Shown piece by piece: positions 5,227-64,000 of a DNA stretch of 64,000 nt. The stretch's first letter is position 1. Every line of letters starts with the position of its first letter. A program made the position numbers and the translations under genes. The notes beneath the pieces were generated by a model. The model was not told the DNA's origin. It saw only the letters and a program-made list of their open reading frames with translations, and made no database searches. Source of the stretch: Torpedo marmorata (lineage: Eukaryota); the NCBI GenBank assembly GCA_977017645.1, contig OZ360242.1, positions 23,188,001 to 23,252,000 on the forward strand, read 5' to 3'.

Positions 5227-5460
5227 TGGGCAGCGGAGTTGGCGCCACTCTATCACAGCGCCAGTGACCTGGGTTCAAAACCACTGCTGCCTGCGAAGAG
5301 TTTGTACATTCTCCCTGTGTCTGCGGGGTTTTTCTCCGGGTACTCCGGTTTCTTCCAAAGATGTACGAGTTGGTAGGTTAATTGGTCACATGAATTTATT
5401 TGGGTGGCGCAGGCTCATGGGCCGGAAGCCCACTGTGCTGTATCTCTAAATTAAATTAAA
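5227..5460 (+). mobile_element. tRNA-derived V-SINE (HE1-like)
   Basis: tRNA-like head (gggttcaaaa), V core ttctccctgtgtctgcggggtttttctccggg, CR1-type tail. Confidence 0.85.
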
Positions 5461-6114
5461 TTTTGTGTTTGATTTTCTGGAGTGAGACATGAATTTACAA
5501 ACATCTGAGTCAGGGACAAGAGCATTCCCTGCAGAACTGCAGTTGACTGGGAAAACAATGGCAAACAATTAAAAACAGGAAATGGAAGGAGATACAAAGC
5601 AGGTTTGCGAGCAACAGTAGAGAAAAGGGCTTAAAGTAAGCCATGCGGCTACGGAGGTTACAAGAGCGCAGGAGGCTTGGGCATCGATGGGACTCTTGTT
5701 TCTTTCTCTTTCTCAGTAGGGGTGCCGGACTAGTGACACCTCTGTGTGCCTTTACAGGCAAACAAAAGTAAACAACCTTTGTGTATTTATGTACATGACG
5801 ATCAAGGAACCTTGAGCACCTCAGGTCAATGTCCTTGCAGCAGTATTTAGTTTACTTCTATCGGTTTCCATAGTATTTTGCTTTTATATTAATCCTAAAT
5901 TCAAAGACCAGCCTAAATTTAAAAGTTTTAGAATTGGACAGTATTTTCCTCAAATTATTTACAGTGATAAATTAGCATGCTGAACATTTTTAAACAGGGG
6001 TCATTTAAATGGTACAATAATTGGATTAATAGGGCTTTAAAGTTTCTGCACAATAGGATGTAGGTCAAGTGCTCCAGGTCAGTTCATTGCTACAATAAGA
6101 GTGACTTCAATTTA

Positions 6115-7065
6115 CCGTATTTGATGGCATATAGGACCCACTGGCATATAGGACCCCACCCATTTTTAGCGTGAGATTTCAGGAAAAAATAATTTTAGTG
6201 TATTTACCTTCACAGCAGCAACGCGGCCTCCTTCCCGCTGCACGCCGAGGCTCAGGCTGCTTCCCTCCCCCCTTCCCCCCCACCGTCCAAACGCTAATTG
6301 ATTGACAGGTGTGCCAGGACCTGCGAGAGTGGGAGGAAGAGAAGCCAGGACAACGTGCAGGGCCTAAGCCCACCGTCGCGGGGAGCAGACAATCAATCGC
6401 TTGTTTTGAGGGGAGCGCTGGGCCTCAGTGATCAGGCTCCACGCTGAGCCTTTGTTCGACGCACACGGCCCCCCGAACAGATTGAATGAGGCGCGGGTGG
6501 CAGTGATCGATCGGGCGGCCTGTTGAGCTGAGCTTGACAGGCCGCTCGCTCACTGCCACCCGCCCCCGCGCCTCATTCAATTTGCTCGAGGGTCCGTGCT
6601 CGTCGAACAAAGGCTGATCATTGAGGCCCAGTGCTCCCCTCAAAGCACTGTTGGTGAGAGCGAACGGGCGGGGAGCGAGCGAGCGGGGAGAGTGAATGGG
6701 CGGGGAGAGAGCGGGTGGGCTGGGACAGCAAACGGGAGGGAGAAAACGGGCGAGAGCGAGCGGGCGGGCGGGGAGAGCGAATGGGAGGGAGAGAGCGGGC
6801 GGGTAGGAAGGAGGGAGAGAGCGAGCCTTCTTACCAGGGGAAGTGAGCGGTGCCGGCGGCGACTCCGGAAAGTACGGGCCACCCAAGGGAAAGTGGTCCG
6901 CGTAGCTGCGGGCCCGCTTCCAGGACTCCACTCAGTGCCCAAAATGGCAGCACCAAAATGGTGGCACCAAATTGTCACCTTCGCATATAAGACCCAGGGT
7001 GGTTTTTTAGGCGATTTTTTGGGGGAAAAAGGGGGGGGGGGGGTCTTATATGCCGTCAAATACGG
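6115..7065. mobile_element. Non-autonomous Tc2-like (Tc1/mariner superfamily) element with CpG-rich palindromic interior
   Basis: TA|ccgtatttgatggcatataggaccc...gggtcttatatgccgtcaaatacgg|TA; CCGTATTT termini are typical of Tc2-type elements. Confidence 0.85.
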
Positions 7066-11805: not shown

Positions 11806-12058
11806 GGGCGGCATGGTCAGCATAGCGGTTAGCGTAACGCTATTACAGCGCCAGCGACTGGGGTTTGAATCTGGCACTGTCTGTAAGGAGTTTGTACGTT
11901 CTCCCCGTGTCTGCGTGGGTTTCCTCTGGGTGCTCTGGTTTCCTCCCATCGTTCAAAAATGTAACGGGGGTTGTAGATTAATTGGGTGTACTTGGGCAGC
12001 ACGGGCTCGTGGGCCGGAAGGGCCTGTTACTATGCTGTATGTCTAAATGTTAAAAAAA
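11806..12058 (+). mobile_element. tRNA-derived V-SINE (HE1-like)
   Basis: gggcggcatggtcagcatagcggttagc...gttctccccgtgtctgcgtgggtttcc...gggccggaagggcctgttactatgctgtat. Confidence 0.9.
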
Positions 12059-15099: not shown

Positions 15100-15592
15100 T
15101 AACATGGCGGCGCTGAGGCTGAAGGACCAGTGCATGCGACGGGCTGCTGGCGACTCGAGGCGAGGAACCCGCGGAGGCTGTGGGCTGCTGGAGACTGCTG
15201 TCGGGGGACTCACACCGGGCTGCGGACTGCTGGAGACTGGCTCGAACTGGCTGGAGGAGTACCAGGTATCGGAACTGGGAAGCGAGGGGGTGCCGAGGGC
15301 GACCTGACCGTGTTGGAGGTTCGGATCTGGAGCTCGGGATGCCGATCGTTTGGACTGGACTCTGTGTGGCTGCGGAAGCGCTGGAGGCGAATCTACGGAC
15401 ACTCGGTGACTCTGGGAGGACTCTGTTTTGCTTCTCTTTCTCTGACTGTAAGGAATGTTAGAGGCGCTTAGACAATTTCTGCCGGTGGCGAATCTGTCTG
15501 CCTTGCAGCAGGCAAAAAGAAATTTCATGGAATATGACACTGTCTTATTACTATGACAATAAATTGAATCTTGATCTTGATCTTGATCTTGA
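15100..15592 (+). mobile_element. CpG-rich non-coding retroposon with Rex1-type tail
   Basis: 3' end tctgtctgccttgcagcaggcaaaaagaaatttcatg...gacaataaattgaa(tcttga)4; GC-rich body; no recognisable ORF. Confidence 0.65.
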
Positions 15593-16432
15593 AGACAACG
15601 TTTGACTTATACATATTGAGTACAAGGCCGACTATCATGGGCTTCAGTGGACAAATCGATGACGGCTTGGAGCTCGATATCGGAGCATGACAAAAACAAG
15701 TTGCTGAGTGCGTACTGCCACTCGACCACTAAGGTTCAGGTGACCTTGGCCCAGCAGTGCAGTCACCGGAGGTTGAACAACTCATTACTTCTGAAAATGA
15801 GCTCAACTTCTGCAGGGCAATTGTTGGAAATGCAATGTTGTGGCAAGAATGATCGAGAAAACTGTCAGAGAAATGATGCAGCCTTGTCTGGTCCTGCTGT
15901 TGACCAACTAGCATCATACGCAATTCTAGCATGTCCTTCCTGTTGTTACATTTAATCATTTAATTAATTTTCAAATCCTTCGCAATTCTTTGCTTTGTGT
16001 ACTGAATGTAAAGAGGAGCTGGTCGAGTTGGAATGGGTCAGGATAAATGGATCTTACAAGTACTAACAGGCTGCACAATAGACTACTGACTGTTTAACAA
16101 AGAACATGCCAGTGGAAAAAATTGCATTGACATTAGAAATTATGATTTGGGTCATGAATTTTGCACAATGGAAGTAAAGGTCTGGAGGAGATATTATTGC
16201 CTGGAAATTAGATAGCACATCCCTGGCCTCCCAGTGCTGAGTGCAAATCAATTTAACTCAGAGTAAATGTTGTTTGCAACCATTTCCATGTCAAATCGTG
16301 CCTTTTGGGAATTGTGACTTCATGTTGTGTGATCCTAAAATGATTTTCATGAAAGGAATCCTGTGATGACGTTATTTGCTGTTCAACATTTCTTTAACAA
16401 AACCTCCGAGTAACTTGGATCACAGGGCGGAA

Positions 16433-16620
16433 TGCTGTTACAGCGCCAGCGACCGGGGTTCAAATCCGGCGCTGTCTGTAAGGAGTTTGTACATTCTCCC
16501 CGTGCCTGCGTGGGTTTCCTCCGGGTGCTCCGGTTTCCACCCACCCTTCAAAATCGTACCGGGGTTGTAGGTCAATGGGTGTAATTGGGCAGCACGGGCT
16601 CGTGGGATGAAAGGGTCTGT
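16433..16620 (+). mobile_element. V-SINE, truncated
   Basis: B box ggttcaaatcc and V core. Confidence 0.85.
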
Positions 16621-17539
16621 TGGTCTAAGAATAAAAGTGCACTGGGAGCACCTGTTATTGGGCATTCCAAAGACAACAATTATTTTTTAAACCAAAGCAG
16701 CACCGACCCTCCACCTTACCCCTGCACTAAAACAAACCCCAACAACCACTCTCTAGCTTGATCCACATTTACAGCCCTGAACCACAAATCCACCAATCTT
16801 ATAATCCCTTGATCCTCACTGCATTTGACCCTCTCCCCACATCTTCACATTAACCTTCCCTCTTGACTGGTATCATGGAGGCTGGTGTGTTCTAGCTGGT
16901 GTATTCAAGCAGGGGACTGATCCTGACCCAACCACTAACCCTTGTTCCCCTACCAATAGCACAGCCACCAGTTCAATGCATCCCCCTCCCGGCCCCTGCC
17001 ACACCACTCATGCGCTTGTCTGACCTGGCCTCAGATCAGAAGATCTGGTTTGATTACTTTTGTCATTGACCTCCTCAAGAAAACCTGTATGGAACCCCAA
17101 TGAGATTAGGCAAGTCCCAAAGCTCTGTCATCTCCCTACTGGCCACAGAGCTCACAATGAGGCAACACATTTACAAGTAAGTGCGCAACTAAGGTCTCAG
17201 ACCCAACTCAGTTGTGAGGTGGTGGGAATAAAGAAAAATGGTCCTTTTTTTTTTTACTGCACCTGCACCTTTCTGGCCCATCCCTTTAGGTGCACAAGGA
17301 CATCCAGGCAGATTTCTGCAGCTGGGGAAAAAAGTGAATAGAGTGAAGGACAGGCTTTTGATTTACTATTCACTGGTCCTTGATACTGTCCAAGACACCC
17401 TTAAACCTCTCACTCAACATAATTAAGCTGTGCCGTATCCACAGCAGGCATTGTGTCACAGTTAGTACTTGACACAAATGAGGGTCTAAATTTGACATTT
17501 TTTGTACTTACTGCAATCAACATTAATTAGAGGAGGATT

Positions 17540-20180: not shown

Positions 20181-21265
20181 GATTTCAGATTTCAGATTTA
20201 TTGTCAGAATACATGACATCACATACAACCCTGAGATTCCTTTTTTCCTGCGGGCGCGGCAGAATTACCACTAATTGGTAGTGTGGAAAAAAACTGTACA
20301 CAGCATAAACATGTAAACAAAAGAACTGTAAACAGATAACGAATGTAAACAAACTGACTGTGCAATACAGGGAGAGCAAAGAAAATCAATAAAGTGCACA
20401 AGAGATGGCATGCTGAATTGCGTTCATGTATACCACTTGAAAAAATTACTTATAATTTGCGTGATAAATATTATTTCTTTTTGAAAATATGGAGCCCATA
20501 TATAAAAACTGTCGGTTTAAGAATTTTAGGATCTCCACATACTGGATCTGACTGGCGAACCTGTGTTCCACTATAAAATTAGGTTATAGTAGTTTTGTTT
20601 AGAGTGACATTCTCCTTACTTTATCTTTTTCTTCCTTCTTTCTTTTTTTCGGGAGGGTTAGGGAAGGGGGGGGAGGGTGAAAATGTATCACATGTAATCG
20701 GATAATTTTGCATTTTAAACTATGTACTGTGTGATTTAAAATCTTTTAAATAAAATATTTTTAAAAAAAATAAAGTGCACAAGTAGTGCACTTAAATGAG
20801 TCCTTAAATGAGTCTCTGATTGACTTTGTTGTTGAGGATTCTGATGGTAGAGGGGTAGCAGCTGTTCCTGAACCTGGTGGGACGAGTCTTGTGGCACCTA
20901 TACCTCTTTCCTGATGGCAGCAGCGAGAACAGAGCGTGTGCTGGGTGGTGAGGGTCTTTGATGATTGCTGCTGCCGTCCAACGGCAGCGTTCCCTGTAGA
21001 TGTACTCAATAGTGGGGAGGGTTTTGCCTGTAATGTCCTGGGCTGTGTCCACTACCTTTTGGAGGGCTTTACGCTCAGGGGTATTGGTGTTCCCATACCA
21101 GACCATGATGCGGTCGGTCAGCACACTTTCCACCACACATCTGTAGAAATTTGCCAGGGTTTCTGATGTCATACCAAACCTCCGCAAACTCCTGAGGAAG
21201 TAGAGGCGCTGACGTGCTTTCTTCACATTGCCATTGGTGTGTTGGGTCCAGGAAAGATCCTCTGA
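20181..21265 (-). mobile_element. Rex1/Babar-type LINE 3' fragment, interrupted by an L1
   Basis: ORF 20804..21226 (KKARQRLYFLRSLR...LLPSGKRYR); tail gacaataaa(tctgaaa)n. Confidence 0.85.
20403..20768 (+). mobile_element. 5'-truncated L1 of the same family with 15-bp TSD
   Basis: RWHAELRSCIPLEKITYNLRDKY matches the 25495 copy; A-tail; TSD aataaagtgcacaag at 20388-20402 and 20769-20783. Confidence 0.9.
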
Positions 21266-21999
21266 GTATCATCTGGCTGTGCTGTTTGAAACACCCACCA
21301 GTTTAGATACATAACCCTGACCACTTATTACCCAGATGAATAGAAGTACTCAGGTGCACTGTCTGGGTTACACAGCCCATTTGTGCCTGACAACAATCCA
21401 CATTACCCCCTCTATGAGCCATTGTTAGGGGTATATATGAGGACAGTGATTGCACACATACTCCTTTCCTTGCTAAGGGAATTACATTCCTAGAGCAACA
21501 TCACCTACAGCTCATTAACAAATATGAAACTAAGATTATGAATCCACAAATTGAACACCTTTACCTGAACATATTGCTCTGTAACTTAAACATTGAGCCA
21601 ATCTTAGTATTAATTGACATGACTAATAAATGTGAATTAGGTGAAGGCAATCTCTTCTACAAATGACAATATTTACTGTATAAAAGTTCATGATACCATC
21701 TTAACCTTCCCAGAGAACATTCATCCCCAGTTTCAGATTTCAAAGGACTGCATATTCAGCAGAGTGAACTCTTACATTGAAACACTGTGCAATTATTTGA
21801 TGACCATTGTTCGGAGAGTCTCAGGATCCTTGCTGGGCTGTGGTTGTGAGAGTAGATTTTCATGCATCTCACTGGTAGAATTTATATTGGCCTTTTTCAG
21901 ATAGAACTCAACTACCACATTAACTATCAAAGCAGCACCTGTATCCCTTCTTACCCTTGTGCTTTAATAAACATTCTTTTCCAGAAAACATTCACCTAC

Positions 22000-24853: not shown

Positions 24854-25494
24854 CTAAGGGAAAAGGAAGCAACCGTTAGTGAATAAACGCATTGGTGTGA
24901 AGCAGTTGTCTAAACATTTAACATTGCAGCTAATATGCAATTTAGCTTCTCATCAAATTAAAACAAGACAAGGATGCTGGCAAGCATGGGGGACCATCGG
25001 GAAATCTGGTGGATCTTGAGAGTTTAATGGCAGGGACTCAATCCAAATGTTTGCTTATGTTTCCCATCTGACAGTGTTGAAATCACCAAACCAACTGAGA
25101 GGGATCGAGAGATTGGAGCTTCAGCAGTGTGCTATAGAAAGGTATCATTCTTGGAGACTTAAAACTCTTTGGCATGGAGGTGAGCTATTTTGATAATATG
25201 TTGATGAATAATAAAATAGAACTGAGTTGAAGGCATTATAAATTCTAGATATGTTTTGATCCCATATTCAGTCATGTTGGATGGCAGGATGGGGAAATCC
25301 TGTGCATGGACAATCAATTCTGAAGGACATAATGTCTTCAAGGGAAGAAATATGAAAAAAGAGAAAGCTGCCAAACAGAGGGAATAAGAGTAGAAAAATG
25401 AAACAGCATTTTGCCAAACCCTTTACTTATCCATATTTATATTTGCACCCAGTGGCGCAAGGATACCTTCTTCCCCTCTGCCATCAGATTTCTT

Positions 25495-26208
25495 TTTTTA
25501 AAAAATATTTTATTTAAAATTTTTAAATCACACAGTACACTGTATAAAATGCAAAATTATCAAAATACATGTGATACATTTTCTCCCTCCCACCCCTCCC
25601 TAACCCTCCCACCCCTACTAATCTAATAAAATAGAAAAGAAAGAAAGAAAAAGATAAAATAAGGAGAATGTCAATCTTAAAAAAAGAAAAACAACTACTT
25701 TTCTTGTGGAACATAGGTTCACCAGCCCGATCTGATATCCAGAGAAGTTCAAATCCTTAAACCAACCATTTTTGTATATGGGCTCCATACTTTCAAAAAG
25801 AAATGATATTTATTACGTAAATTATAAGTAATTTTTTCAAGTGATATACATGAACGAAGTTCTGCATGCCATCTTTCTAACCCTAAATCTACATCTGATT
25901 TCCATGTAATAGCAATGCATTTCTTAGAAATAGCTAAAGCAATTCGCAAAAATTCTACTTGATACATATTTAATTTCATCTTAGTACTAATTCTTTTAAC
26001 ATCTCCAAACAAAAATATCATAGGGTCCATTGGGAGTATAATTCTTAATACTTTATCTAAAAATATTTTAACTTTCAACCAAAAATCATATATCTTTGGA
26101 CAAAACCATGTAGAATGTACAAAAGAACCTTCCTCTCTATTACATCTAAAACATAAGCCGGATAATGTCGGATTAAATTTCTTTAATTTTTTAGGTGTTA
26201 AATATAAT
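25495..26208 (-). mobile_element. 5'-truncated L1-clade LINE (ORF2 C-terminus, 3' UTR, A-rich tail) with 16-bp TSD
   Basis: CFRC...H..WFCP zinc knuckle upstream of ORF 25749..26078; TSD tgccatcagatttctt at 25479-25494 and 26209-26224. Confidence 0.9.
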
Positions 26209-26310: not shown

Positions 26311-27564
26311 CAGTACGTTTTCCCATATCCGAAAAGCTTGGGACCGGACGGTTTTCGGTTATTGTTTTTTTTTTCCCGGTTAACGGAACAAAACCGAAAA
26401 AACCCAAAAACAGCACAGTAGCATCAGCCGCCGCCAGCCCCCGACACCTCCGTCGCTGATCCCCAACACCTCCCCACCGCCCCCGCCAATCCCCGACACC
26501 TCCCCACCGCCCCCGCCGATCCCCGACACCTCCCCACCACCGTCACTGGTCCCCGACACCTCCCCACCACCGTCACTGGTCCCCGACACCTCCCCACCGC
26601 CCCCGCCGATCCCCGACACCTCCCCACTGTCGTCACTGGTCCCCGACACCTCCCCACCGCCGATCCCCAACACCTCCCAACCACTGCCGCCGATCCCCGA
26701 CACCTCCCAACCACCGTTGCTGATCCCCGACACCTCCCCACCACCGTCACTGGTCCCCGACACCTCCCCACCGCCGATCCCCGACACCTCTCCACCTCCG
26801 TCGCCGATCCCCGACACCTCTCCACCTCCGTCGCCGATCCCCGACACCTCTCCACCTCCGTCGCTGATCCCCGACACCTCCCCACCGCCGTCACTGGTCC
26901 CCGACACCTCCCCGCCGGTCCCTGACACCTCTCCACTGCCGTCACCGATCCCCGACACCACTCCACTACCGTCGCCGATCCCCGACACCTCCCCACCGCC
27001 ATCGCCGATCCCCGACACCACTCCACCGCCATCGCCGATCCCCGACACCACTCCACCGCCATCGCCGATCCCCAACACCTCCCCACTGCTGCCGCCGATC
27101 CCCGACACCACTCCACCGCCATCGCCGATCCCCGACACCACTCCACCGCCATCGCCGATCCCCGACACCTCCCCACTGCTGCCGCCGGGAGGCCACTCTC
27201 CTTGATGACGCCGGGACAGCGGAGTGTAAAGGAGAAATGGAGAGAGAGAGGGGAGGGAGTTACTGAAACGAGCACAATCTCCCCATGTGCTGCCTGACCC
27301 GCCAACTTCCTCCAGTCGCTCACTGATGGCTCGAGATTCCAGCCTGCTTCTCTGAGCCGGCATCCAGCTGTTCAGCGTCTGTCTTCCCGGCTGGTTCTGA
27401 GCTCTGTTGTTACCAAACTGGCGCCAACATGTGGGTCACAGCCCCACGTGGGCAAGTCAGGTGATAAATTTTTTTCAACTTGTGACGTCATTTCGGCGCC
27501 GCAAAAAAGTTCGGTTAATGGAACATTTCAGTTAACGGAACTTCGGATATGGGGAAATGTACTG
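26311..27564. mobile_element. Tigger4/MER46-like (pogo) non-autonomous element carrying a minisatellite
   Basis: TA|cagtacgttttcccatatccgaa...ttcggatatggggaaatgtactg|TA; subterminal gcttgggacc and tgtgacgtcatttcggcgccgcaaaaaagttcgg. Confidence 0.8.
26430..27186. repeat. GC-rich minisatellite, ~25 units of 30 bp (with 24- and 21-bp variants), consensus ~CCGATCCCCGACACCTCCCCACCGCCGTCG
   Basis: Directly visible tandem array; explains the Gly-rich and Pro-rich pseudo-ORFs at 26380-27363. Confidence 0.97.
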
Positions 27565-29026: not shown

Positions 29027-29255
29027 AGTTAAACAAGAAAGCATGCAGATGAGGGGATAGAGTGCAATACATAAACCTGCTGGAGAAACTCAGCAGGTCA
29101 CGCAGGAGATAAAGGGTAACCAACATTTCGGGCCCGGGCCCTTTCACCACGTATAACCCTATACCTGATGAAGAGCCCAGGCCCGAAACGTTGGTTACCC
29201 TTTACCTCCTACAAATGCTGCATGACCTGCTGCGTTTCTCCAGCGGGATTGTGTA
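29027..29255. mobile_element. Penelope-terminal-repeat-derived hairpin mini-element with hammerhead-like core
   Basis: Two inverted ~85-bp arms around ~29158; CTGATGA-AGAGCCCAGGCCC-GAAACGTT at 29165-29192; 16-bp TSD ttgaggaacagaacag. Confidence 0.8.
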
Positions 29256-29560
29256 TTGAGGAACAGAACAGTCTAACTCTGCTGCTAATTCATATGCAAA
29301 TACATGCACCCTACACAAATGCAAGCATTTGCTAACCCAGGAAAAAAGTTTAGCATGTCTCGATGTGCAACTTACACATTTAGTCAACTTGTGTCTTTTT
29401 TTTCACCACAAGCAGGATGTGAAATGCAAAAGATTTATACTTCAGAGGCATATTTAAAGCAAACTCTATTGAATGGATTTTAAAAGTCACTATAATGTAG
29501 AAGCATTTAACATTCTAATCAAAGACTTGGAACTGCTCTCCTGAAAACTATACATTTGGT

Positions 29561-29781
29561 AAATGTAAAGGTTCCATTATTGTCACGTAATACTACATTT
29601 AGAATGTAATATACATGAAATTCTTTAATTTTTGTCCACCGTAAGGCAGACAGAGGGTCGCTACTTTGTCCAGCGCCCCTCGCAGCACCTGGTGTTCCTA
29701 GGCGGTCTCCCCTCTGAGTACTGACCAGTCCTGTGCCTGCTTAGCTTCCGAGATCAGACAATCCCAGTCGTATTCAGGCTA
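29561..29781 (-). mobile_element. 5S rRNA-derived SINE (SINE3-like) with Rex1-type 3' tail
   Basis: Minus strand of 29683-29781 reads tagcctgaatacg...gtctgatctcggaagctaagcagg...ggtcagtact...ggagaccgcctaggaacaccaggtgctg (5S rRNA); it is followed by tctgtctgcctt...aatttcatgt...gtgacaataa. Confidence 0.88.
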
Positions 29782-31165
29782 TTGGTGCTGTTTGTTAACT
29801 TGTCCTCTGTCAGTAAACACATCACATCCATTGGATTGGGAAGTTTCTGGTCCTGGATTGGTCTAACAAATCGGCATTTCTGTCTTTGTACAAGTAGGCC
29901 TGGGTTTATATTTAGTACAGGAAGAGAACTGAGGTGGTAGAGGCAGTGGAACAGTGTGAACGGCGTGAGTGGGAGTTTTCCCATACAGCCAACTGAACTG
30001 ATTGGCAGATTGCCTTTCCAATTCTTCAAACAATTTTCCTGACCAACTACCACCTGATTAAAAAGATGCCCATCTTGAAGAGAAAGTGCCTGGCATCTCA
30101 AGGGGCTGACCCCTACATGAGCACATGGGAATGGGGGACAGTGGTCGGTCGTCAAACCTGCAAACCGCATAGAGTTGAACCCCTTTAGCCTGCAGAAAGC
30201 ATTTCTACTCTATCTGCTCCACCAGCACTGGACATCAATTCCCTGATCTTTCAAAATATCTTTCTTTTAATTCTCCTATTGACCTGGCTTCCCCGACCCT
30301 CTCGTTGAGAATTCCAGTGATTCACCACCCTCTGTGATAAAAAAAAATTCCCATCTATCTCAGTTTTAAATGAAAATCTCCTTCTAAATACGTCTCCTCA
30401 TTGGGGATTCTCCGCTCCTTTAGCCAGAGGGTGGTGATTCTGTGGAATTTGTTGCCACGGGTGGTTGTGGAGGCCAAGTCATTGGATGATTTAAGGAAGA
30501 GATTGATAGGTTCTTGATTAGCCAGGGCATCAAAGGTTATAGGGAGAAGGCCAGGCAGTGGGGCTGAGCGGGAAAATGGATCAGTTCATGAATGAATGGC
30601 GGGGCAGACTGGATAGGCCTACTTCTGTTCCTACGTCTTATGGTCTCCTGCAAGATTCTTCCATTAGTGGAAACATATTGACATCTCCCTTGACCTGCCC
30701 CTAAAGATCCTGCATGTTTCAATAAGATCTCCCCTCAGTCTTCTAAACTTCAAATAAAGGTTTAATTTCTTTAGCCATTCATGATTTAATTTAAATAGAT
30801 AGGTGGGGGGAGCAGGGTGAGAATGAAGTTTAATTCGTCCAACATTTTTCCCCTGAAAACTTTCCTCTCATATTTTGGAAGGAATAATCATAATTCTCTA
30901 CTAAATGAGGTGACAGATAAATCTATTGAATGTGAAACGGTATACATAGGGACTGACAACAGTTAGCCACTACCTCTCCATCCAAACCCAAATTACATTT
31001 TAATGTGAAATTATCGAAAGTTATGATGCAACTACAGTAAAAATGGAACAAAATATCTTTTCTGATCTGCTTTTTACCTTTTACATTCTGAGTTAATCTT
31101 TACAGCAACTCACTAGTCAGGATTTTCCATTCCACAAAGCTGGTAGAAAAACTGCAACAACTTAC

Positions 31166-42177: not shown

Positions 42178-42415
42178 GTTAGCGTAACAGTTAGCGCAAC
42201 GTTGTTACAGCGCCAGCGACCCGGGTTCAAATCAAGCACTGTCTGTAAGGAGTTGGTACGTTCTCCCCGTGTCTGCGTGGGTTTCCTCCGGGTGCTCCGG
42301 TTTCCTCCCACCCTTCAAAAACGTACGGGGTCTATAGGCCAATTGATGTATTTGGGCGGCACAGGCTCGTGGGCCGGAAGGGCCTGTTACTGTGCTGCAT
42401 CTCTAAAATTCAAAT
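42178..42415 (+). mobile_element. V-SINE inserted in an old CR1 remnant
   Basis: Same head, core and tail as the 11806 copy. Confidence 0.88.
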
Positions 42416-46894: not shown

Positions 46895-47153
46895 TGTTTA
46901 AATTTGGACATACAATACAGCATGGTAACAGGCCCTTTCAGCCCACGAGCCTGTGCCGCCCAATTACACCCAATTGATCTATAACCCCGGTACGTTTTGA
47001 AGGGTGGGAGGAAATCGCAGCACCCGGAGGAAACCCACGCAGACACGGGGAAAAAGTACAAACTCCTTACAGACAGCGCGGGATTTGAACCCTGGTCCCA
47101 GTCGCTGGCGCTGTAGCAGTGTTGCACTAACTGCTACGCTAACCATGCCGCCC
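46895..47153 (-). mobile_element. V-SINE
   Basis: Reverse complement of the same family, full head to tail. Confidence 0.9.
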
Positions 47154-50021: not shown

Positions 50022-50286
50022 TTAAATTTAGATTTTAAATTTAGACATACAGCACGGTAACAGGCCCTTTCGGCCCTCGACCCTGTGCCGCACAATTACA
50101 CCCAATTGACCTACAACCCCCGGTACGTTTTGGAGGGGAGGAGGAAACCGGAGCCCCCGGGGAAAACCCTCGCAGACACGGGGAAAACGTACAAACTCCT
50201 TACAGACAGCGCAGGATTCGAACCCCGGCCCTGATCACTGCCGCTGTAACAGCGTGGCACTAACCGCTATGCTAACCATGCCGCCC
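50022..50286 (-). mobile_element. V-SINE
   Basis: Reverse complement of the same family; B box ggttcgaatcc intact. Confidence 0.9.
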
Positions 50287-61084: not shown

Positions 61085-61165
61085 AAGGCCCGCAGGAAAA
61101 AGAATCTCAGGGTTGTATGTGATGTCACGTATGACCTCTGACAATAAATCTGAAATCTGATTCTG
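61085..61165 (+). mobile_element. Isolated Rex1-type 3' tail (~80 bp)
   Basis: Near-identical to the reverse complement of 20184-20256 (cccgcaggaaaaagaatctcagggttgtatgtgatgtca...gacaataaatctgaaatctga). Confidence 0.75.
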
Positions 61166-61899: not shown

Positions 61900-64000
61900 T
61901 ATCAAGTCAAGTCAAGTCACCTTTATTTGTCGTTCATTACCATATACACAGTAAGACGAGATAGTGTTTCTCCAGGACCATGGGCAGATGTACATAAATA
62001 TCATAATACAATAGAAAAAACTATAACATGCTAGTACACATATATATCTAGGAGTTGAGGAGCCTGATGGCTTGGGGGAAAAAACTGTTGCACAGTCTGG
62101 ACGTACGAGCCCGAGTGCTTTGGTACCTCCTTCCAGATGGAAAAGGGGAAAACAGTTTGCCAAAGGGGTGTGAGAAGTCCTTCACAATGTTTTTAGCCTT
62201 CCTCATGCATCGTGTGTTGTAGATGTCTGTCATGGTGGGGAGAGAGACTCCAATAATTTTCTCCACTACCCTCACTATCCTCTGCAGGGTCTTTCGGTCC
62301 GAGGTGGTACAGTTACCAAACCAAGCGGTGATGCAATTGCTCAGAATACTCTCAATACATCCCCTGTAGAATGTAGTAAGGATAGGGGGTGGGAGATGAA
62401 CTTTCCTCAGTCTTCGCAGGATGTAAAGACGCTGCTGGGCTTTCTTGACTATGGAACTGGTGTTTAGGGACCAAATGAGACCATCCGCCAAGTGCACTCC
62501 AAGAAACCTGGTACTCTTTACGACCTCAACGGTAGAGCCGTCCATGGTCAAAGGAGAATGATCCCCCCGGGCCCTTCTGAAGTCGACAACCAACTCTTTT
62601 GTTTTGTTCACGTTCAGCTGCAGTTTGTTGTTTCCGCACCATTCCATTAGCGACTGCACCTCATCTCTATGCTGACTCATCATTCTTACTGATAAGGTCC
62701 ACCACGGTCGTATCATCAGCAAACTTTTTGATGTGATTCGAGCTGTGTTTTGCTGCACAGTCATGAGTCAGCAGGGCGAACAGCAATGGACTAAGCACCC
62801 AGCCCTGGGGAGCCCCCGTGCTCAATGTAATGACCTTAGAAGTGCTGTTTCCAATCCAGACCGCCTGAGGTCTTCCCGTCAGGAAGTCTAGGATCCAATT
62901 ACAGAGGGTGTAGTTTAGGCCCAGCCCCCTCAAGTTCCCTATCAGGTACTGAGGTATGATCGTGTTGAATGCCGAGCTGAAGTCAATAAACAGCATTCGA
63001 ACATACTCGTCCTTATTTTCCAGGTGGGTGAGGGCTAGGTGGAGGGTGGTAATGATGGCATCATCTGTGGAGCGGTTTGATCTATATGCGAACTGCAGGG
63101 CGTCCAGTGAGGGGGGCAGCAGAAGCTTGATGTGCCTCATGACGAGCCTCTCGAAGCACTTCATGACGGTAGATGTGAGTGCGACAGGGCAGTAGTCATT
63201 GAGGCAGGACACCGTCGACTTCTTCGGCACGGGGATGATGGTAGCAGCTTTGAAGCACGTTGGAACCATGGCACTGGTCAGGGAGATGTTAAAGATGTTG
63301 GTGAGAACATCAACCAGCTGGGCCGCACATCCCCTGAACACTCTGCCGGGAATGTTATCTGGCCCAGCAGCTTTCTGTGGGTTAACCTTGCTTCACACTC
63401 TCCTCACATCGGCCACTGTGAAACACAGCACCTGATCATTTGGAGGAGGGGTTGTCTTCTTTGCCACTACTTCATTTTTTTTCCTCAAAACGCGCATAGA
63501 AGTTGTTCAGTGCATCTGGGAGGGAGGCGTCACCAGCACAGTCAGATGGTGTAGTCTTGTGGTTAGTGATATCTTGAATGCCCTTTCACATGCGTCGCAT
63601 GTCCTTGCTGTCTTGAAAGTGACTCTGAATTCGTTGGGCCTGTGCACGCTTTGCCTCCCTGATGGCCTTAGACAGCTTGGCTCTTGCGATAGCTAGGGTT
63701 ACCTTGTCGCCCGCACTGAAGGCAGAGTTTCGGCTCCTCAGCAACACACACACCTCCGCAATCATCCATGGCTTCTGATTAGAGCGAGTAATGATGGTCT
63801 TGGGCACAGTCACTTCGTAAGTACACTTACTAATGTAGCTAGTCACTGATGCTGTATACTCCTCCAGATTGATGCAGTCGCCATCGGTTGCTGCTTCCCT
63901 GAACATGTGCCAATCAGTACGCTCAAAGCAGTCCTGCAGTGCATGGATGGCACCTGCTGGCCAGGTTTTAACCTGCTTCCGAACTGGTCTGGAGCATCTG
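61900..64000 (-). mobile_element. Rex1/Babar LINE RT region and 3' UTR, frameshifted; runs off the window end
   Basis: ORFs 63586..63906, 62667..63341 ([34 protein letters not shown]) and 62048..62764; tail aataaagg(tgact)n. Confidence 0.92.

Follow-up and report, generated by a model that had tools for sequence, protein, structure and literature searches.

The minus strand of the window (the whole 64,000-nucleotide stretch of Torpedo marmorata DNA analysed here) carries a short repeat in which a 5S rRNA-like head runs directly into a retroelement-like tail, and this locus raises the question of whether it is a chance chimera or one member of a SINE family and, if the latter, where its two halves came from and which enzyme copies it. 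A sequence-only reading had proposed a core-less SINE fused directly to the tail of a Rex1 LINE. On the evidence below we consider it probable that the locus belongs to a young, abundant, core-less SINE of ~242 bp with a 5S-derived head, whose tail recurs in a tRNA-headed sister SINE and in an ORF-less retroelement; Pol III is the likely polymerase, acting from the internal promoter of the 5S head, and the reverse transcriptase (RT) of a Rex1-type element is the likely copying enzyme, in trans. The dispersal, copy number, head origin and tail kinship of the SINE are direct observations from this genome.

The window copy occupies 29560-29791 (minus strand) and consists of the 5S rRNA-derived head (29686..29791), which covers gene positions 5 to ~110 in this copy and extends to ~117 in intact family copies, followed directly by a tail of ~126 nt (29560..29685). 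The head was confirmed on this strand by its Rfam match (RF00001; at 39.2 bits it lies just above the gathering score, 38). The element had been thought to start at 29781 with ~14 nt missing from the 5′ end of the head, but 30 aligned loci share sequence from ~10 nt further upstream, the true start is 29791 and only 4 nt are missing, as alignment of the family head with the 5S gene of this genome begins at position 5. The 5-bp TSD proposed earlier is spurious because its copy at 29782-29786 (ACCAA) belongs to the head sequence in most aligned copies; the other, at 29556-29560, begins in the tail microsatellite. Across 62 near-full copies, longest flank matches of 5-7 nt occurred 46 times against 44 expected from a swapped-flank control; only matches of at least 8 nt departed from it, with six candidates against 1.3 expected. 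The short 'GC linker' that the sequence-only reading had set between head and tail aligns to the 3′ end of the donor element and is therefore part of the tail. At the head/tail joint (29685..29686), the window copy has lost 10 nt, and the alignment places the deletion site between two short direct repeats; this deletion is present in 5 of 58 scorable copies (15 more were unscored), a frequency that is enriched because the window copy served as the query. The absence of a central core was upheld: head positions 1-113 and the donor-aligned tail from ~114 make up the whole family unit, so that by this accounting of head plus tail no stretch is left for a DeuSINE, CORE or V-SINE domain. The 3′ end of the unit comprises a first predicted hairpin (29633..29652, in the MFE fold of the family 3′ end), a terminal stem-loop (29583..29618; TCA...TGA) directly before CAATAA and, in the aligned copies, a hexamer microsatellite, (CCTTTA)n, without poly(A) (29558..29572), all on the minus strand.

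The junction between head and tail is multi-copy. All 40 scored matches (of 2562 candidates) span nearly the whole query at 93-100% identity, and 30 loci aligned with their flanks have a common (CCTTTA)n end and unrelated flanking sequence. A density sample composed of three 200-kb blocks and sixty 10-kb pieces, taken at arbitrary positions on large contigs with the window excluded, contained 13 copies in 1,200,000 bases (8 in blocks and 5 in pieces), 11 of which keep 5S sequence and 8 of which start within the first 10 nt. Extrapolated to the 6.22-Gb assembly, this density gives ~67,000 copies (Poisson range 36,000-115,000, which clustering would widen). The copies depart from their majority sequence at 58 of 2533 non-CpG sites (2.3%) and at 15 of 158 CpG sites, and the family is therefore young. 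The multi-copy junction, shared ends, unrelated flanks and density sample together bear out the proposal of a core-less 5S SINE family over that of a one-off chimera. Its units are shorter than 1 kb, interspersed on many contigs and not tandem, and by the density estimate they exceed the minimum of 100 copies (80 distinct copies were collected), in agreement with the SINEBase definition. A literature search that took in few subscription papers and did not extend to Repbase Reports, Dfam or the SINEBase table found neither a 5S SINE from sharks or rays nor this family; the family is real and abundant, with a traceable origin, and is probably uncatalogued, although Repbase, Dfam or SINEBase may hold it.

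By sequence criteria the family is a SINE3 and not a DeuSINE. The threshold for a SINE3 head is 60% identity to 5S rRNA across 60 nt or more, and here 93 of 113 positions are identical; the copies also have an additional body and common diagnostic changes absent from the 5S gene, which separates them from pseudogenes, and boxes A, IE and C appear to be retained, as judged from their sequence. The reference for these comparisons was this genome's tandem 5S gene, which was identical in all 30 genes retrieved from the array. The array itself lies at G000:C25:86.20-86.56 Mb, has a unit of ~3.1-3.8 kb and holds all 47 scored 5S genes. The majority head corresponds to gene positions 5-117 and its 20 differences are concentrated at the 5′ side: the 45 positions upstream of box A hold 13 of them, and the 68 positions from box A onward hold 7 (2 each in 50-64, 80-97 and 98-117, and 1 in 65-79). 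The same upstream divergence is described for SINE3 heads in PMC10886601.

Within the type-1 Pol III promoter, the box A core (29736..29746, minus strand) is intact in the window copy, as the sequence-only reading had noted, and exact in 60 of the 70 head-bearing copies; the IE motif is retained in 67 of 70 and the gene's box C state in none. The earlier report of a mutated box C (29701..29717, minus strand) likewise proved right: relative to the gene, the family is changed at positions 84 and 97 (two changes in 18 nt), and the window copy has two further changes. No letter other than that of the family is listed at position 84 in any of eight sequencing runs in which that bin was covered; we infer that the change in box C is probably older than several amplifications and that it is unlikely to inactivate the box. 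The literature yielded nothing usable on the effect of a position-84 change on TFIIIA binding. A second 5S array with the T112 state of the head was sought, and the exact pattern returned six scattered matches and no array. Three minor observations concern the head. The changes at 5S positions 30-36 (window 29759-29766, minus strand, positions 30-37) amount to an in-place 8-nt inversion plus two CpG transitions. Those at gene positions 7, 10-12 and 112 allow an 8-bp helix between the head ends (positions 1-8 and 103-110) in the predicted fold. In 3 of 80 copies (L025, L036 and L343) the initial ~20 nt of the head are tandemly duplicated, which suggests RT slippage at the 5′ end.

The tail has close relatives of two kinds. 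Its profile, the supposed linker included, matches GC-rich elements at their 3′ ends. One of these is the element at 15100, whose resemblance had been noticed earlier and now stands on firmer ground (nhmmer 24 bits; z=11.0 against shuffles); that element is a 5′-truncated copy (15110..15592, plus strand) of an ORF-less retroelement of subfamily NA_A, full length ~0.85 kb. These ORF-less GC-rich families are 5′-truncated, reach ~0.85 kb and contain no Rex1 protein match within the element. The nearest subfamily, NA_D, has 97 of 118 identities to the family tail (z=23.7). A search for the donor's GC-rich body at the three RexA 5′ ends obtained found no match, and an apparent 5′ kinship with Rex1 leaders was discarded when its one match (E=1e-11) proved to lie 1.2 kb upstream of a truncated copy and to be unrelated. 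The second relative is a SINE with a tRNA-like head at L054:1705-1900 (minus strand), which has the same joint and a tail identical at 121 of 128 positions; ARAGORN recognizes the head only at a relaxed threshold and when it is given alone. The head and joint of this sister matched 39 other dispersed places among 40 scored (481 candidates), and no copy of them occurred in the 1.2-Mb sample. Its L054 copy has a head ~14 nt shorter than most of its genome matches. A genome search with the tail alone returned only the 5S family (27 of 30 loci with 5S sequence upstream, 3 truncated). The ORF-less superfamily with Rex1-type 3′ ends was represented by 35 tails in 1.2 Mb (loci L091-L130 and L221-L250 are among its members), and is therefore more numerous than the SINE; the 3′ end of another, older member lies in the window at 5718..5815 (plus strand).

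The question of the copying enzyme leads to Rex1 by a less direct path than the sequence-only reading had supposed. Rex1-type RT is plentiful in this genome (268,505 PF09004 candidates), and rays are among the highest in Rex1 coverage according to PMC13343379. Direct fusion to a Rex1 tail was not borne out, as the nearest relatives of the tail are the tRNA-headed SINE and the ORF-less family, and among 262 Rex1 C-terminal loci in 1.96 Mb, 233 of them with enough downstream sequence (47 RexA, 68 RexB, 63 RexC and 55 unclassified), no ORF end carried the SINE tail as its own, in a sample that covers a very small share of the genome and over-represents two subfamilies. The five best scores came from separate insertions next to the ORF ends. 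Near-identity to an autonomous Rex1 3′ UTR was absent among the ORF ends examined (best direct z=2.6); alignment of the tail to the local Rex1 tails, the check that had been suggested, gave z=2.6 for RexB (9 of 500 shuffles reach the score), 0.1 for RexA and 0.0 for RexC. The kinship seen earlier with the Rex1 ends at 20181, 24637 and 61085 survived only at the level of shared motifs (local scores of 43.5, 32 and 40, near shuffle level, against shuffle means of 31-35). NA_D gave z=1.6 against RexB, and NA_A gave z=8.1 against the ORF-linked RexB tail. Mobilisation of the SINE by Rex1 RT is thus likely yet indirect, because it follows from a chain of alignments (SINE to NA_A to RexB) and from a shared terminal stem-loop.

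That stem-loop belongs to a Rex1-type 3′ architecture (stem-loop, CAATAA, microsatellite and no poly(A)) present in the SINE. A predicted stem of at least 8 bp closing at GA|CAATAA was found in 50 of 50 SINE copies, 23 of 28 NA_D, 30 of 36 NA_A and 54 of 64 RexB ends, compared with ~30-40% of shuffles (SINE shuffles 54 of 150) and 16 of 70 unrelated motif sites; RexC (3 of 49, with a 6-bp stem) and RexA (9 of 35) did not pass this 8-bp test. Between SINE/NA_D and RexB, pairs 4, 6 and 7 change on both sides, pair 4 being T-G/T-A in the SINE and G-C in RexB, pair 6 T-A against G-C and pair 7 A-T against T-A (sequence anchors only). The anchors largely dictate pairs 1-3, which carry little information, and slid-partner controls reach 0.71-0.77 paired at some offsets, NA_A doing no better than its own +2 slide. 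We caution that 3′ stem-loops are described as widespread across LINE clades; in stringent LINE/SINE pairs they are the recognition signal (PMC5135761), and the predicted fold at 29583..29618 is likely to serve as such a signal for the RT.

Several neighbouring elements were considered as the partner LINE and set aside. A Rex1 ORF end lying 436 nt upstream of the best donor tail has a tail of its own, the donor copy being a separate insertion; four further Rex1/donor neighbours were rejected likewise, and the top PF09004 matches belong to one subfamily with a different tail. In the window, the local ORF-linked tail most like that of the ORF-less superfamily belongs to a Rex1-type LINE 3′ part (RexB, PF09004) at 20181..21268 (minus strand), whose 3′ UTR exceeds those of its relatives by ~390 nt owing to an insertion with a further match at 25489-25874. 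A RexA copy at ~61900-63392 (minus strand) has RT and PF09004 in two frames; the tail at 61085 is not part of it but a plus-strand fragment of RexB.

Two other accounts of the tail were weighed. It might have come straight from the 3′ UTR of an unsampled autonomous Rex1 subfamily, as in the sequence-only reading, and have passed from there separately into the ORF-less family and into the SINEs; there are at least four Rex1 tail types, 55 of the 233 ORF ends are unclassified and a transitive link to RexB exists, but all 233 ends were scored against the SINE tail with only neighbouring insertions at the top, the ORF-less body lies upstream in 110 of 120 mid- and low-scoring tail relatives, and at 30 NA_D loci no Rex1 protein match runs into the tail of the element, and we regard this origin as unlikely. 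We judge it quite improbable that the partner belongs to another stringent LINE clade (CR1, L2 or RTE) and that the likeness to Rex1 is convergent. Direct alignment to Rex1 tails is weak, as that account would have it, and vertebrate SINE3 families are said in PMC7245038 to be moved by CR1-clade elements; against it, the motif at which the stem-loop closes is also that of ORF-linked Rex1 ends, in a comparison whose LINE tails were those of Rex1, and the NA_A alignment to RexB is well above its shuffles (z=8.1).

The third alternative takes the copies for processed 5S pseudogenes or for chimeras that each arose from a single template switch, to which the missing first 4 nt of the head and the altered box C might seem to point. 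It is refuted by the shared junction, the sampled copy density and the diagnostic changes common to the copies, including a box C in which the gene's state is retained in 0 of 70; moreover, all seven 5S matches found in 664 kb are copies of the SINE family, and we give this alternative almost no weight.

The favoured reading, a core-less SINE3 copied in trans by a Rex1-type RT, suggests the following course of events. The 3′-terminal ~125 nt of a GC-rich, non-autonomous retroelement of the NA_D lineage would have gained a Pol III head by template switching, and a head swap at exactly the same joint would have produced the tRNA-headed and 5S-headed versions, in either order. In a few source copies, boxes A, IE and C would be occupied by TFIIIA and TFIIIC, and transcription would start from the type-1 promoter; the SINE unit has no T4 run, and Pol III would therefore read on into the flank, where a T4 run lies within 200 nt downstream in 61 of 80 copies. 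Rex1 RT/endonuclease would then recognize the terminal stem-loop and CAATAA, with reverse transcription primed in the microsatellite, and insertion driven by Rex1 would leave 5′ truncations and, as a rule, no TSD. A bolder extension, which we put forward tentatively and think somewhat doubtful, is that Rex1 spawned the ORF-less ~0.85-kb superfamily as satellites in this lineage, outside the four LINE clades reported to have bipartite derivatives, that both tRNA and 5S heads took over its structure-coded 3′ signal, in which a TCA...TGA stem with a free interior precedes CAATAA, and that the 5S form outran its sister. If so, the success of the 5S form would contradict the expectation that 5S promoters support retrotransposition poorly.

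The chimera extends to other material. Parts of the sequence are contained in 20 runs from 10 studies and 8 organisms, one of which may be the source; 8 of the 23 listed runs were examined. In organisms D, E, G and H, contigs extend across the head/tail joint with at least 31 nt to either side (14,854 contigs were compared for D and 18,950 for E), and no listed contig does so in B, C or F (42 contigs only for F). Runs that may be RNA contain the element within contigs, which reveal neither transcription start nor strand and so say nothing about Pol III. At six informative places, D, E, G and H have other letters, which match the 5S gene (positions 62 and 67) or NA_D (four tail sites, exactly or on one side), in keeping with a subfamily of this chimera that is less derived and lies closer both to the 5S gene and to NA_D. 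In one run of E, a loose end corresponds to the head end of the tRNA sister at the same joint.

RSg-1 belongs to the Rex1/Babar clade. Its 3′ tail offers a parallel in salmonids, where the 5S SINE of OS-SINE1/SlmI/HpaI, like the present one, shares a LINE-type 3′ tail with tRNA SINEs (PMC3747384); OS-SINE1 is listed there as a DeuSINE with a central domain, whereas here there is none and the tail traces to an ORF-less element, a likeness drawn from description and not from sequence. Similar in arrangement are HaSE3 and HaSE1 of Helicoverpa armigera, a 5S-headed and a tRNA-headed SINE that share body and tail (94% there, 121/128 here) through what PMC3272025 explains as template switching; they differ in having an RTE partner and in that HaSE3 is rarer than its tRNA sister, whereas here the 5S form is commoner (13 against 0 copies in 1.2 Mb). 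The springhare pair Ped-1/Ped-2 also places 5S and tRNA heads on one LINE-derived part, which there comes from BovB (RTE) and is bipartite, whereas here it consists of one 3′ piece, of Rex1 type; the listing of Ped-1 in PMC3747384 under 5S and BovB is a precedent for a 5S head on a LINE-derived part. Zebrafish SINE3 and AmnSINE1 share the 5S head, and their Deu domain and CR1-type partner are absent here. The relation of NA_D to the SINE fits a model of SINE birth in which a small-RNA head is template-switched onto an ORF-less LINE derivative (PMC5786205). The same paper names only RTE, Ingi, Vingi and R2, and no Rex1, as LINEs with bipartite non-autonomous derivatives; NA_D and NA_A are candidates for such a bipartite structure.

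No general principle is changed by this family, since 5S heads, head swaps and stringent 3′ stem-loops have all been described. Its value lies in the survival, within one genome, of three parents of a young and abundant SINE3 (the 5S gene, the ORF-less donor and the tRNA sister), and the steps of SINE birth can therefore be ordered. The terminal stem-loop is a testable candidate for the 3′ signal read by Rex1 RT, and lineage-specific subfamilies could serve as insertion markers. Annotation would also be affected: tens of thousands of copies score above or close to the Rfam 5S threshold, and counts of 5S genes would come out too high (215,681 rough candidates here).

Other repeats were noted in the window. 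Six copies of a ~230-bp repeat with a different tail (5237-5450, 11806-12055, 16427-16621, 42178-42415, 46897-47153 and 50032-50286) probably represent a different SINE; ARAGORN reported no tRNA in the two copies tested. Long inverted repeats at 29065-29258 and 6402-6647 gave sub-threshold Rfam miRNA matches, and the first of them matches other dispersed copies in the window. A 30-bp GC-rich minisatellite in 25 copies occupies 26445-27187.
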